From contig CAVWHO010000016.1 of assembly GCA_963754875.1 (NCBI GenBank), positions 584,586-648,585 of the forward strand: a DNA stretch of 64,000 nucleotides, written 5' to 3'. Under the pieces are notes generated by a model that made no database searches, was not told the DNA's origin, and saw only the letters and a list, made by a program, of their open reading frames with translations. Position 1 is the stretch's first letter, and each line of letters opens with the position of its first letter. The DNA is from Nitrospirota bacterium (GTDB taxonomy: Bacteria > Nitrospirota > UBA9217). The position numbers and the translations under genes are program-made. This document shows positions 35,383 to 43,306 of the stretch, piece by piece.

Positions 35383-37487
35383 TCACTTCTTCCCCTCCGG
35401 CTGCTTGAAGATAATCCTCGCATCGAGCGCCACGGCGCCCTTTTCCATCACCATGAGCGGATTGACATCCAGCTCCTGGATCTCCGGGAAGTCGGACACG
35501 AGGCATGAAAGGTTCACGATGTAACTTGCGATGGAGCCGATGTCCGCAGGCGGCTCGCCGCGCGCGCCGCGCAGGAGCCCGATGGTCTTGATCTCGTTGA
35601 TCATGGCAAGGGCGTCCCGCCGCGCGACCGGCACGATCCTGAAGGCCACGTCCTTCAGTACTTCGACGTAGATGCCGCCGAGGCCGAACATGATCATGTG
35701 GCCGAAGGTGCGGTCATACGTCACGCCGAGGATCACTTCCTTGCCGCCTTTGAGCATCTCGAAGATCATGACGCCCTTGATGAAGGCATCGGGCATGATG
35801 CGCCGCGCATTCGACGTAATGTCCAGGAACGCGTCTTCGGCCTCTTTCGGCGATTTCACGTTCACGCGCACGCCGCCCACGTCGGTCTTGTGCAGGATGT
35901 CGGGGGACGAGATCTTCATCACCACCGGGAAAGCCGATCGAGGAAGCCATCTCAGCGGCCTCCTTCGAGGTCTGGCCATCGCATGCTTCGGGAACTGGAA
36001 CCCGTAGTACGTCAGGATCTGCATGGCCTCGTCTTCGCCCACCTGGTAGATGCCTTTTTTGAGAATGGCGGCGACGGTCTCCGCCGCAGCGTCGAAGTTG
36101 TACCAGCAGGTCACCAGCTCTTCGGGTTTCGATGTTCTTCCACGCCCGCTGGTCCGACAGGCGCTTGAAGGCCTTGACCGCGAGCTCGGGATAGGAAAAG
36201 TTCGGGATCGATGCGGCCTTGAGCATCTCGATGCCCGCGCGCACGCGCTTTTCGCCCATGAAGGACGTGATGATCGGCTTGTCCGTGGTCTTTGCCGTTT
36301 TAATGACCGCGTCGGCGGTCTTCTCCATGTCCGTCATGGCCTGGGGCGTGAGGATCACGAGGATGCCGTCCACGTTCGGGTCTTTGGCCGCCTGCTCGAG
36401 CACGGCGGCGTAGCGCTCCGAGGTCGCGTCGCCGATCACGTCCACGGGATTGAAGATCGAGGCATTCGGAGGAAGCTTCGGCGCCATGGCCATCAAACTC
36501 TCTTTGGTCATGTGCGGCAGTTCTATGCCCATCCTCTCGGCCGTGTCTGCGGCGATGATGCCCGGGCCGCCGGCGTTCGTGATCACGAGCAGGCCGTTCC
36601 CTGCCGGGATCTTGCCCTCGGAAAAAGCGAGCGCCGTGTCGAACAGGTCCTGCACGCCCTGTGCCCGCATCACGCCGGTCTGCTTGAAGGCCGCGTCAAA
36701 GGCAACGTCCGAACCCGCCAGCGCGCCGGTGTGGGACGAGGCCGCACGCGCGCCGGCTTCGGTGCCGCCGGACTTGAGCAGGATGATGGGCTTGACCTTC
36801 GTGGCTTTTTGCGCCATCGTCCATGAAGCGCTTGCCGTCCACCACGTCCTCGATGTAGCCGAGGATGAGGCTCGTCTCAGGATCGTTCATGAAATATTCG
36901 ATAAAGTCGATCTCCGAGAGGTCCGCCTTGTTCCCGAGGCTGATGAACTTCGAGAACCCCACGTCGTTCCCGATGGCCCAGTCCATGATCGCGATGCCCA
37001 TGGCGCCGGACTGGGAAAAGAAGCCGATCGTGCCTTTCGGCAGCATGTCCGCGGCAAAGGTGGCGTTCATGTCCTTGGCGGTGTTGATCAGGCCGAGGCA
37101 GTTCGGCCCCAGGATGCGGATGTGCTGTTCTCTGCTGATCGCTTTGAGTTCTTCTTCGAGGAGCGTGCCGCCCGCGCCCGCTTCCTTGAATCCCGCGCTG
37201 ATGACGATGGCGGACTTGACACCGCAGGCCGCGCACTCCCGGAGCGAGGCGGGAACGAACTTGGCGGGGATGACGATGATCGCAAGATCGACGTGGTGTT
37301 TGATGTCCGATATTTTTGCGTAGGCCTGGAGTCCCAGGATCTCTCCGCAGGACGGATTGACGGGAAAGAGCGAACCCTTGAACTTGAAGGTCAGGAGATT
37401 ATTCAGGACCGCATGTCCGACTTTTTTTGGATCAGCGGACGCGCCGATGACGGCAATGGCGCCCGGGTTGAACAAGGATTCGAGCAT
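35383..37487 (-). CDS. ADP-forming acetate-CoA ligase (alpha-beta fused), several indels
   Basis: IAVIGAS, ILGPNCLG, SQSGA, SLGNKAD, ASSHTGALAG, TNAGGPG, HKTDVGGV, ELDVNPL across three frames. Confidence 0.85.
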
Positions 37488-40232: not shown

Positions 40233-40704
40233 ATGAAACTATCGTGGATGTCTTTTTACACTCTCATTCTTGCCCTTTGGGTAGGCGGCATCGCGGTTTT
40301 TACTTTCATCATGACGCCCGCGATCTTCCGTTCCTTCAGCAGGGACCTGGCCGGCGAGATCGTCGGAAAACTCTTTCCCGGCTATTTCCTCTACAATTTG
40401 GTCATCGCCGCCCTCGCACTCGTCCTATTTTTCCTGGTCGCAGGTGATCAGACGAGTACGCCAGCCCGCCTTTCGCTCTTTCTTGTGACGCTTGCCCTTT
40501 TTATAAACGCCTACGTCGTGTTCAAGCTCCATCCCGATACGGTAAGGGTGAAGCAGCAGATCGTATCATTCGAACGCGAGTCACCGGACTCTCCGGCGCG
40601 GAGGCAGTTTCAGCAGGCTCCATGCCGTAAGCGCATCACTGAACTTGCTGCTTCTCGCCGATGGCATTGTTCTGCTCTTGATCAGTCCGGCGTTGAGGAA
40701 ATAG
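40233..40704 (+). CDS. DUF4149-like membrane protein (late frameshift)
   Basis: LWVGG, PAIF, AGEIVGKLF, then four hydrophobic helices. The last helix is in another frame. Confidence 0.7.
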
Positions 40705-40800
40705 GCCCCTTTTCACTGCAATGTCAGCGATAAGGGATAAATTTCGCTTGACATTTTCGCGAGAATAATAGATATTACCACTCTCCAAGTGGTTGGAACC

Positions 40801-40876
40801 GGGCGGATAGCTCAGCTGGGAGAGCACAGCCCTTACAAGGCTGGGGTCACAGGTTCGATCCCTGTTCCGCCTACCA
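40801..40876 (+). tRNA. tRNA-Val(TAC)
   Basis: Cloverleaf with anticodon arm CAGCC-CTTACAA-GGCTG, GGTTCGA T-loop and CCA end. Confidence 0.95.
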
Positions 40877-40886
40877 TTAATATCAT

Positions 40887-40972
40887 AGTTCAGAGTACAA
40901 AGTTCAGAGTACTGAGTATAAGGAAGCTGACTTTGATTTTCACTTTGAACTTTCAACTCTGCACTTTGTACT
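40887..40972. repeat. Inverted heptamer-repeat array
   Basis: AGTTCAG AGTACAA AGTTCAG AGTACTG, then ACTTTGA ACTTTCA ACTCTGC ACTTTGT. Confidence 0.6.
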
Positions 40973-40981
40973 ATTCCTTAA

Positions 40982-41035
40982 GGGGTGGTAGTTCAGCTGG
41001 TTAGAACGTCCCGACTGGTTGGGAAGGTCGCCGGT
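40982..41035 (+). pseudogene. tRNA-Asp mimic with a substituted anticodon arm
   Basis: The first 27 nt are identical to tRNA-Asp, then TCCCGACTGGTTGGGA, then AGGTCGC resumes. The T-arm and 3' end are lost. Confidence 0.8.
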
Positions 41036-41094
41036 CCAGAATACCGTCTCGAGCGTTAATTTAAGTGACGATGTAAAGTTTCTCCTCAAAAAAT

Positions 41095-41171
41095 GGGGTG
41101 GTAGTTCAGCTGGTTAGAACGCTAGCCTGTCACGCTAGAGGTCGCGGGTTCGAGCCCCGTCCGCCCCGCCA
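41095..41171 (+). tRNA. tRNA-Asp(GTC)
   Basis: Anticodon arm CTAGC-CTGTCAC-GCTAG, GGTTCGA and CCA end. Confidence 0.95.
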
Positions 41172-41192
41172 TTCATACCTGCCAAATTTCCC

Positions 41193-41444
41193 ATGCCGTT
41201 CTATGTCTATATTTTACAGAGCCAGAAGGATGAGTCCCTCTACATAGGACAAACTTCAAATATAGAAGAACGCCTGTTGCGTCACAATCAGGGAAGATCA
41301 ACGTATACAAAATCTAAAAGACCCTGGAAATTGCTCTATTATGAATCTTTTAATTCCAGGTCCTCTGCCGTAGGGAGAGAGAAGGAATTAAAATCATTCC
41401 ACAGGAAAGATCTTCTCATGGGATTAATAAGGTCAGCTGATTAA
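41193..41444 (+). CDS. Small GIY-YIG nuclease
   Basis: FYVYIL...LYIGQT, RLLRHN, YTKSKRPW, REKELK. Visibly AT-rich. Confidence 0.9.
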   Translation: MPFYVYILQSQKDESLYIGQTSNIEERLLRHNQGRSTYTKSKRPWKLLYYESFNSRSSAVGREKELKSFHRKDLLMGLIRSAD

Positions 41445-41476
41445 AAACGTCCCGACGAGTCGGGAACTCTTTTCGA

Positions 41477-43306
41477 TTACTTCCTGATCTTCCCCATCCT
41501 CTTCGCCAAACGCTCCGTCTCATCCAGCAGCTTTTCCACTTCATTCAGCCCCCTGTCCCAGAACCGCTTGTCGGCTATGTCGATCCCGAGCCGGCCAAAA
41601 ATATTCTTCGGCGATTCGGAGAGCCCAGCAGAAAGGAATTCTTTCACCTTGTTAATGAAGACAGGATCATTCTTTACAGAATTCTGGAGCGATTTGGAAA
41701 TCAGAAGTCCACTCGCGTAGGAATAGACATAGAAGAAATACCGGATATGGTTCCAGTAAACCCACCAGTTCTCCGAGCCCGCTGACTGCTCCACGGCCTT
41801 TCCCATGTATGCTGCCATGTGCTTCTGAAATAGTTCCCCGATCGCTTCCTTCGAGAGATACCCGCTGGCGCGAAACGCCTTATGCAGCTCCTGCTCAAAT
41901 CGGTAGCAGGCAACCTGCCGGAAGATGGACGAAACATCGTCGTTCAATTTCTGCATCATGATCGCAAGCCGCAGTTCATCATCAGCAGAATGGATGATCT
42001 CTTCGAGCACAAAATCCTCCATGAACGTGCTCGCGACCTCAGCAGTGGAAGTCGGGGTGCCGAAATCAAGGGCGTGCTGTTTTTCCCGGATCAACTCGTT
42101 GTTGATCCCGTGGCCGAGCTCGTGTGCTATCGTGAGGACATCGTGCAGCTTGTTCGTATGGTTCAGGAGGATGTACGTTGGCTGGGTCATGAGATGGTGG
42201 ATACAGAAGGCGCCGCTGTCCTTGCCTTTGCGGGGGTAGGCGTCAATCTGACCGTTCTTGATGAACCCGGCAAAGATCTCGCCGAACTTCCGGTCAAGCT
42301 TGTTCATGACAGTATAGACGAGGTTCACTGACTGCTGATAAGGATAGCGCGTCGCAACGACGCCGTACTCCACGTTCCGCTCATGATACTCAAGTCTCTT
42401 AATCTTGAGCATCTTCGCCTTGAGCGCGTAATACCGTGACGGGATGTCGAAACGGCCTGCTACGGAATCGATCAGAGTGTCCACGACCTCGCTCTCGATG
42501 TCGTCGGCAAGATGCCGGAGAGTATCCGGTCTCGGCGAACTGCGGAGCTCGTCGTCGATTTTCTTGTTCTGCAAAACGGAATTGAGCTCAGCCTCGGCGA
42601 TTTCCACGTTCTTCAGCAGTATGTCGTTGAAAGCATGTGCTGAAGAATCGCGGACCCGTTTGCTCTTGCTGTTCATGAGGCCGATGATCTCCGTGAACGG
42701 CAGGTTTTTTTTCGTCCCTTTTTCCGTCAAGACAACCCGCTCTTCCTTGGAGAGGAAACCCGACGTCATTTTCGTCCAGTTAGCATAGGAGGTGGCCGAT
42801 TTGAGGTTCAAAATTTTTTCTTCTGGTTCGCTCAGGTGATAACGCGATTCTGCAAAGATACGCTCCAGAAAGTGGCGGTATTTTGTGAGGGCCTCGTGAT
42901 CGAGAAACTTCTTCTGGGCTTCCGGCTTGACCCTCGCGATGCGCAGATAAAAAAACTGACTCTCGTTCTCCAGCTTCTTGCTGAAGTCTTCTAACTTGTT
43001 GAACTTGGCTTTGAGCTTTGCGTCGATTTGGTCCTGCTGCGTCCTGAGCCAGAAGTAGTAGCCCTCGTCCCCGTCGGTCCCGTAGTGCCGCTTCCACGAT
43101 TCATATTGGTCGAGCGCCTGCCTGAGGATGAGGGGGTCTTCCAGATAATCCGTGCGGTCCTTCCATGCGTTGATGAACTCGTAGCTTTTCTGTTCCACGA
43201 TCTTTCGCTTTTCTTTCATGCGCGGGTCGGTATCACCCCGGAAAAGCGGCTTGAAGTTCCAGACTGTGCGCTCTACCTTTAAACCATTTTGTCGAATAGG
43301 GGCCAT
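41477..43306 (-). CDS. pepF: Oligoendopeptidase F (M3B)
   Basis: GKDSGAFC, HELGH zinc motif, AEVASTF, HIRYFFYVYSYA. Confidence 0.9.
   Translation of the reverse strand: MAPIRQNGLKVERTVWNFKPLFRGDTDPRMKEKRKIVEQKSYEFINAWKDRTDYLEDPLILRQALDQYESWKRHYGTDGDEGYYFWLRTQQDQIDAKLKAKFNKLEDFSKKLENESQFFYLRIARVKPEAQKKFLDHEALTKYRHFLERIFAESRYHLSEPEEKILNLKSATSYANWTKMTSGFLSKEERVVLTEKGTKKNLPFTEIIGLMNSKSKRVRDSSAHAFNDILLKNVEIAEAELNSVLQNKKIDDELRSSPRPDTLRHLADDIESEVVDTLIDSVAGRFDIPSRYYALKAKMLKIKRLEYHERNVEYGVVATRYPYQQSVNLVYTVMNKLDRKFGEIFAGFIKNGQIDAYPRKGKDSGAFCIHHLMTQPTYILLNHTNKLHDVLTIAHELGHGINNELIREKQHALDFGTPTSTAEVASTFMEDFVLEEIIHSADDELRLAIMMQKLNDDVSSIFRQVACYRFEQELHKAFRASGYLSKEAIGELFQKHMAAYMGKAVEQSAGSENWWVYWNHIRYFFYVYSYASGLLISKSLQNSVKNDPVFINKVKEFLSAGLSESPKNIFGRLGIDIADKRFWDRGLNEVEKLLDETERLAKRMGKIRK

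Follow-up and report, generated by a model that had tools for sequence, protein, structure and literature searches.

A small GIY-YIG nuclease gene beside hairpin-bearing partial copies of tRNA-Asp: a candidate minimal cassette at tRNA genes

How does the gene of an 83-aa GIY-YIG nuclease come to lie next to an intact tRNA-Asp gene, accompanied by fragments of this tRNA gene whose anticodon arm has been exchanged for a foreign hairpin? The question arises from the window, that is, the whole stretch of 64,000 nucleotides analysed here, which is found at the end of contig C16 in a 90%-complete genome (4,305,532 bases, 53% GC) whose closest homologues come from Nitrospirota. An initial annotation, made from the sequence alone, had proposed a minimal selfish unit whose hairpin either marks the element ends or immunises the site. 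Our analysis leads to a related reading, which we hold to be somewhat more probable than its negation: a minimal selfish cassette, in which the nuclease would nick single-stranded DNA beside its own hairpin and host recombination would copy the unit into a tRNA gene.

The tRNA-Asp locus and its nuclease

The features of the locus are collected in Table 1. The upstream mimic reproduces the start of the real tRNA-Asp base for base before the anticodon arm is exchanged for a hairpin, just as first described, and its opening 27-mer (40982-41008) occurs twice in the 4,305,532 bases. At 40982-41031 the mimic has neither T arm nor acceptor 3' strand. Hairpin 1 contains one G-T pair where relatives have G-C. 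The AT-rich gene 21 nt past the CCA (37% GC) does encode a GIY-YIG protein (PF01541, E 1.5e-18), and its end does double as a D-arm look-alike (41433-41449) followed by a second hairpin (41450-41465). This second hairpin is terminator-like on both strands and lies between the converging nuclease and oligopeptidase genes. A strict hairpin pattern recovered two places only in the genome, 41009-41024 and 41450-41465. The window copy can be described as a gene-less upstream unit plus a gene-bearing downstream unit with a worn end, in which the ORF is intact and the downstream tRNA half has been lost.

Table 1. Features of the tRNA-Asp locus, in window coordinates.
Feature	Position	Strand	Remarks
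Sigma-70-like promoter of the tRNA-Val/tRNA-Asp operon (host)	40748..40776	+	10/12 consensus match
tRNA-Val(TAC), host gene, context	40801..40876	+	ARAGORN, Rfam
Val-Asp spacer (host)	40877..40981	+	86 identities over 105/106 nt versus locus L033
tRNA-Asp 5' half (acceptor 5' strand and D arm)	40982..41008	+	27/27 identical to 41095-41121
Hairpin 1, replaces anticodon arm	41009..41024	+	TCCCGACTGGTTGGGA, 16 nt versus the 17-nt arm of the real gene
Variable loop, 7-nt return of tRNA sequence AGGTCGC	41025..41031	+	similarity to tRNA-Asp ends there
Inner spacer of the 113-bp upstream unit	41032..41094	+	33 scattered identities in 63 nt versus host spacer
tRNA-Asp(GTC), intact, with CCA	41095..41171	+	ARAGORN, Rfam
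Leader, 21 nt	41172..41192	+	ribosome-binding site not obvious by eye
GIY-YIG nuclease gene, 83 aa, single-domain	41193..41444	+	ORF begins 21 nt past CCA
Worn D-arm tail, overlaps last codons and stop of nuclease	41433..41449	+	relatives have exact D-arm tails
Hairpin 2	41450..41465	+	TCCCGACGAGTCGGGA, directly after D-arm tail
11 nt to stop of host M3 oligopeptidase gene	41466..41476	+	relatives' tRNA 3' half absent

The tRNA-Asp of this locus is the sole one among the 42 tRNAs called in the 90%-complete genome. The promoter, a counterpart of which precedes tRNA-Val in relatives, would read through the mimic, the tRNA and the nuclease gene. A leader like the one in Table 1 also precedes decayed nuclease genes at two other loci (L046, L048), and the inner spacer is not clearly related to the host spacer. 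As had been claimed, no integrase turned up in a scan of 11 adjacent ORFs; the surrounding genes have housekeeping roles. Rfam found no ribozyme core or group I intron in 40600-41700, where its matches were the two tRNAs and one chance-level antisense hit. The host Val-Asp spacer (40878-40981) forms a long imperfect hairpin (z -2.9) of short repeats, and similar spacers are found in many empty relatives.

It hardly seems credible that the layout is a chance duplication, an island scar or an assembly error. Probable indels do lie nearby, and no run covers the upstream mimic: 24 public sequencing runs were listed, none containing half of the stretch; four runs compared at 80% likeness yielded relatives' contigs only, and the RNA run X14 covers the promoter and the tRNAs only. 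Run X1, which may be the source sample of the assembly, contains one 151-nt contig identical, with no difference, to 41404-41554 across the downstream junction. Stronger evidence comes from other genomes, in which the same layout occupies the same Val-Asp locus, and the same layout with exact junctions recurs in many independent genomes and metagenome contigs. The arrangement is real and no artefact. As a general account, chance or error is refuted by the family-wide tRNA linkage and by the loci found through the hairpin (see below). Elsewhere in the window, an acetate-CoA ligase-like gene (35383-37487) is split over three overlapping frames and a DUF4149 gene (40233-40733) changes frame near its end relative to its relatives; both are probably assembly indels.

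The protein carries the complete catalytic set of the GIY-YIG superfamily (Tyr, Tyr, Arg, His and Glu; here Y6, Y17, R27, H31 and E63). In an alignment of 59 proteins (the window's and 58 of the 120 listed homologues), Y6, Y17, H31 and E63 are invariant and R27 is conserved in at least 90%. Its predicted structure is a compact GIY-YIG fold (pLDDT 90.9) with no added DNA-binding domain. Pfam returned GIY-YIG and T5orf172 alone, with no HUH tyrosine transposase. Comparison with nine relatives (nine pairs; pN 0.16-0.26, pS 0.67-0.96) showed that the protein is under purifying selection. In 52 of the 120 listed homologues the C-terminus ends in an RTSR/RASR-type motif, which is the D-arm tail plus hairpin read in frame. 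Matches in NCBIfam and PADLOC were far below cut-off or confined to short stretches, and none in a defence library was convincing (best E 2.5e-5 over 35 residues). Low GC as proof of recent arrival was considered and rejected, since the GC of the nuclease gene follows that of its flanks across relatives.

tRNA linkage, junctions and hairpins across the family

Homologous loci were collected in two ways. Starting from the protein, a search of species genomes with the alignment of 59 sequences yielded 530 loci, of which the 80 best were taken. A same-strand tRNA ended within 350 nt upstream of the gene at 55 of the 80 (54 of the 71 with at least 200 nt of flank), with kin not independent in this or any other family count given here for linkage, junctions or allele tracking. 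The tRNA was Asp in 48 cases, Ala in 3, Val in 2, and Ser and His in 1 each. At 47 of these 55 loci a hairpin was flanked by pieces of the locus's own tRNA, against 4.6 expected with non-cognate tRNAs, a count that includes a few calls spurious by eye (e.g. L135). The mimic was downstream in 38, upstream in 23 and on both sides in 14. Of the remaining 25 loci, 22 contain the hairpin or lie no more than 900 nt from a tRNA. As in free-standing homing endonucleases, the GIY-YIG gene lies beside tRNA genes and outside an intron. Two controls gave no such linkage: in related genomes, small GIY-YIG genes of more distant kinship had a tRNA within 1.5 kb at 0/22 loci, and a tRNA was present at 0/133 loci with the Neisseria-type NTS repeat.

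Starting from the mimic pattern instead, 68 metagenome loci were recovered, with a tRNA at 51. The nuclease gene fell within the fetched flank at 33, leaving 35 without it. Where 450 nt were available on both sides, 19 of 31 loci had the gene and 12 had none, so gene-less mimics are common. Upstream mimics occur in 2-4 tandem copies. There are tandem arrays with and without the gene, and tandem arrays of 2-3 genes also occur. The homologues are, in short, tRNA-linked and hairpin-bearing; the outcome that the initial annotation had named as its refutation was not seen, and the data support the claim of a minimal unit, a GIY-YIG gene plus a hairpin, tied to tRNA genes.

In all 33 gene-bearing loci of this second set the nuclease gene was on the mimic's strand. 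Together with the promoter-like site upstream and the tandem copies of upstream mimics, this would suit a system acting at the RNA level, in which mimics transcribed with the tRNAs would act as decoys that resemble tRNAs or as the nuclease's RNA antitoxin. We find such a system quite unlikely. The orientation is accounted for just as well by a DNA nuclease with strand specificity; the window's upstream mimic is devoid of T arm and acceptor 3' strand; folding gave no significant z-scores for the mimics, the upstream one folding as DNA no better than shuffles (z 0.91); and Rfam gave no match. The hairpin nuclease SsnA, moreover, binds its hairpin in single-stranded DNA only, cutting a few bases upstream, and does not bind RNA (according to the available text of PMC11893778).

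The exchange is precise. In the protein-first set, 47 of 79 called hairpins replace the anticodon arm with exact boundaries on both sides and 16 more do so on one side; this is the unbiased count, as another of 110 anticodon-arm junctions in 143 contexts is inflated by a mimic search pattern that forces that junction. A second exact swap, replacing the T arm above its first pair, was present in 16 of 143 contexts (12 in Asp genes and 4 in one Val locus), and the right flanks differ between the Asp genes and the Val locus, which suggests guidance by structure plus homology. Copying of the upstream flank is no general feature: at least 6 nt in common with the flank of the real gene were seen in 13 of the 43 upstream mimics. 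Other variants were seen. In five loci (L002, L005, L065, L066 and L353) the mimic's T arm has given way to a second hairpin with exact boundaries, sometimes alongside the anticodon swap. In five more, mostly from Bacteroidota (L121, L127, L129, L134 and L136), the hairpin replaces the segment from just past the anticodon to the T stem, and L129 has an additional hairpin in the D loop.

The initial annotation had also proposed to test whether the mimic follows the identity of the adjacent tRNA, and this was borne out at the level of alleles. The whole 5' half of the locus's own tRNA was matched exactly by 26 of 29 upstream mimics (1.4 expected from the alleles of other loci) and the whole 3' half by 23 of 32 downstream mimics (2.0 expected), most of the misses being second hairpin swaps. 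Later gene conversion could also explain this tracking. Hairpins, too, are alike within a locus: upstream and downstream copies had a likeness of 0.65 versus 0.34 between loci (13 loci; 0/10,000 permutations, in a test that ignores the kinship of loci). L185 and L189 are nearly identical loci whose arrays differ in content, and each of the two has a uniform hairpin of its own.

Two layouts were distinguished. One runs tRNA, gene, D-arm tail, hairpin and 3' half; its mirror runs 5' half, hairpin, gene and tRNA, and here the stop codon can sit inside the real tRNA (L352, L353, L359, L362). The mirror layout was also seen at tRNA-Pro in L092, L107, L116 and L365 (a viral contig end), with the last codons of the gene inside the tRNA 5' end. 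L115 is a related GIY-YIG gene of a Doudnabacteria genome lying within what by eye appears to be a 16S rRNA gene, with no tRNA and no hairpin. L085 carries a Desulfobacterales-like cassette on a contig filed under an archaeon, which is possibly misbinned.

The stem base of the hairpin is common to phyla and tRNA types and differs by nuclease clade. In place of TCCCG..CGGGA, a shorter GTCG..CGAC hairpin accompanies a sister clade of five nucleases at tRNA-Ala(GGC) (L029 and L355-L358), with a likeness of 60-74% among themselves and 36-49% to the remaining nucleases; both hairpin types occur together at two tRNA-Ala loci (L352 and L357). Conservation of the stem and its co-variation with the nuclease subclade argue for positive recognition of the hairpin rather than a merely spoiled target, and these comparisons point to the hairpin being recognised by its nuclease. 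The suggestion that the hairpin marks the ends of the unit is supported.

Empty sites, inheritance and movement

Empty and filled sites were compared within the host family, using the 30 best of 50 full-length matches to tRNA-Asp. Five had an intact gene (including the window), five a broken gene or orphan hairpin, and 20 neither, the decayed class being judged partly by eye and including L057, which has an internal stop. Relatives show the cognate site in both states, filled and empty, as is expected of homing endonucleases; the window, a donor in such a scheme, retains an intact tRNA gene. Among syntenic relatives the closest, L033, is empty, the Val-Asp spacer there leading directly to an intact tRNA-Asp, hence the 5' half of the window mimic occupies the ancestral gene position. 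In run X2, one contig is devoid of exactly the 113-bp upstream unit, joining 40981 directly to 41095 with a 27-nt ambiguity, and another is devoid of the gene and hairpin 2; these empty sites fit deletion as well as a state before insertion.

Homing with immunity was weighed against these data. The nuclease would cut the native tRNA gene at the junction of D arm and anticodon arm, repair from the donor's outer tRNA halves would copy everything between the hairpins into the cut, and the hairpin would destroy the site. The ancestral position of the outer 5' half, the presence of both outer halves in 14/55 loci, the exact junctions and the split of the 30 sites into 5 intact, 5 decayed and 20 empty, which is the pattern of a homing cycle, all favour it. 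There is also a phage precedent in SegB of T4/T6, a free-standing GIY-YIG homing endonuclease encoded among tRNA genes, which cuts in tRNA genes and brings about nuclease-dependent tandem amplification of the tRNA-segB unit via microhomology between the tRNA 5' end and the gene 3' end (available portions of PMC13096335 and PMC2988022). SegB, however, makes double-strand breaks in native tRNA regions, whereas the window gene is chromosomal and encodes just 83 aa, and in the available portions of the same two papers no hairpin-swapped tRNA copies are described. Homing with immunity is in our view rather unlikely, and immunisation of the site by the hairpin is disfavoured, given that the intact tRNA between the mimics is unprotected and would stay cuttable. 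Moreover, an immunising change needs no conserved palindrome, yet the stem base is shared and varies with the nuclease clade; at most loci the mimic is either upstream or downstream and not both; and the protein lacks any added DNA-binding domain.

Within Nitrospirota the gene is rare, with a close homologue in 8 of 401 genomes at E 1e-30 or better (21 at 1e-16), and when syntenic loci of the same genus are ranked by peptidase divergence, the four nearest are empty or decayed. The window protein falls inside a Nitrospirota clade (11 rows, value 97) in a quick tree of 88 columns that leaves 57 of 107 branches open. Synonymous divergence of the nuclease was similar to that of the neighbouring peptidase in one comparison (0.67 and 0.61 versus G010) and somewhat higher in another (0.86 and 0.63 versus G006). 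From these sequences, the gene looks vertically inherited within Nitrospirota, with frequent loss. The idea of a selfish mobile unit stands as far as unit anatomy goes; its mobility does not follow directly, as the Nitrospirota data fit vertical descent with frequent loss and speak against strong mobility there. Movement we infer over long times only, from the spread across tRNA types and phyla and from the separate subclades at the same tRNA-Ala. As for carriers, there was no match in 72,556 plasmids, phage matches reached 46% at most, and viral contigs yielded four distant proteins and one pattern hit at a contig end, with no carrier among them; no strain-level before/after pair was found.

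At three loci (L100, L104 and L113) the gene is directly preceded by a 3' fragment of tRNA-Asp, which begins close to the anticodon loop and lacks any 5' half. Such fragments are of the kind that islands leave, being the usual far end of a tRNA-integrated island, and islands may displace or carry the nuclease cassette.

Vertical signal and purifying selection would also befit a domesticated host module that cuts incoming single-stranded DNA or island intermediates at the tRNA attachment site, and the three island-type fragments directly before the gene add to this, as does SsnA, which limits transformation (PMC11893778, in its available text). That such a module explains the family is unlikely in our estimate: a close homologue in merely 8/401 Nitrospirota genomes, with the closest same-genus syntenic loci empty or decayed, just two hairpins in the genome and no convincing defence-library match do not suit a host function.

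Known systems and the proposed cassette

The nearest functional parallel is Ssn (cd10448), with its NTS/SRM repeats. Both are single-domain GIY-YIG proteins of less than 100 aa with the same catalytic positions and a strand-specific layout, and in both the hairpin flanking the gene has TCCCG/CGGGA at the base of its stem. SsnA requires Y6, Y17 and E64, the measured effect of its cutting is fewer recombinants rather than spread, and the authors liken NTS-ssnA-NTS to insertion sequences and propose that hairpin-flanked GIY-YIG genes are mobile (PMC11893778, available text). The differences are considerable. The window protein shares 30-34% identity with six NTS-adjacent proteins. These stand-ins for Ssn have a C-terminal extension, absent from the window protein, and form a separate long-branch clade that groups apart in the quick tree (9 rows, value 98, branch 1.15). 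Hundreds of hairpins per genome occur there, against two here, where they replace a tRNA arm; no NTS/SRM repeats flank the window gene, and only the stem base is shared. The word tRNA is absent from the main text of PMC11893778 as available, and the NTS loci had no tRNA (0/133). With the SsnA clade represented by the six NTS-adjacent proteins, the window nuclease would not be classed as an Ssn. By analogy it probably works like the Ssn-hairpin module, and SsnA-like chemistry may be assumed for it.

The genome does contain 14 NTS-like CGTC repeats elsewhere (e.g. C16:600557, inside the window), none of them at the nuclease gene. Its three GIY-YIG matches are the window gene, a UPF0213-like gene and a 636-aa frame, none of which is Ssn-type; the repeats are either orphans, or an Ssn-type gene went unassembled.

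Other systems share single traits. Among solved structures, the best matches by sequence and fold are UPF0213 proteins (PDB 1zg2, 1ywl) and the nuclease domain of Slx1, but the distant small GIY-YIG genes of the same hosts are tRNA-free (0/22), and Slx1 is larger and eukaryotic. Integrase-driven islands duplicate part of a tRNA gene and a working copy survives. The family resembles them in its partial tRNA duplication with the working copy kept, and differs in that the window unit has no integrase in the 11 ORFs scanned, units measure 113-370 bp, either half can be duplicated, and the spare copy has a foreign hairpin replacing an arm. RAYT and IS200-IS605 enzymes are HUH tyrosine transposases, not GIY-YIG nucleases. 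The likeness of REP-RAYT and IS200-IS605 lies in a small nuclease with a cognate single-stranded hairpin and in non-autonomous tandem derivatives (PMC3733652, available text). In the same available text, a survey of CGTC-tagged palindromes, the term GIY does not occur, and the four mentions of tRNA refer to tRNA-modifying or tRNA-charging enzymes (PMC3733652).

Under the cassette reading that we prefer, some 10 nt of D arm would form the cis site together with the TCCCG/CGGGA hairpin and some 6 nt of variable loop. In the manner of SsnA and Slx1, the nuclease would bind the hairpin in single-stranded DNA and nick beside it, leaving a free end within tRNA-homologous sequence. Strand invasion or template switching at the boundary of D arm and anticodon arm, or of anticodon arm and variable loop, would then duplicate one half of the gene; because recombination duplicates that half, a working tRNA would be rebuilt while the spare half keeps the hairpin. 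Loss would proceed by recombination between direct repeats or by decay, and rare re-entry would take place on chromosomal DNA from kin. More tentatively, and with rather less confidence than even chances would warrant, the family may represent a widespread class of integrase-free mobile elements, in which an 83-aa nuclease pastes its hairpin with base precision, takes its ends from any tRNA that it reaches, spreads across tRNA types and phyla and rebuilds a working tRNA. No description of the hairpin-swapped tRNA layout was found in the literature searched, which covered few subscription papers, and within that literature the family-wide arrangement is apparently undescribed.

Should this mechanism prove correct, site-directed residence at tRNA genes would take no more than a gene of about 250 bp and a hairpin of 16 nt, with neither integrase nor transposase. 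The mechanism would assign a role to the many small 'putative endonucleases' that fall outside the Ssn clade and provide natural enzyme-hairpin pairs of differing specificities for single-stranded DNA tools, and the mobility proposed for hairpin-flanked GIY-YIG genes (in the available text of PMC11893778) would become testable. It would also explain pseudo-tRNAs miscalled by annotation tools, two mimics of the hairpin-first set having been called tRNA-Glu and tRNA-Ser. Full-length mimics are a hazard for annotation: ARAGORN calls those of L145, L154, L090 and L120 tRNA-Glu, tRNA-Ser or unknown tRNA.
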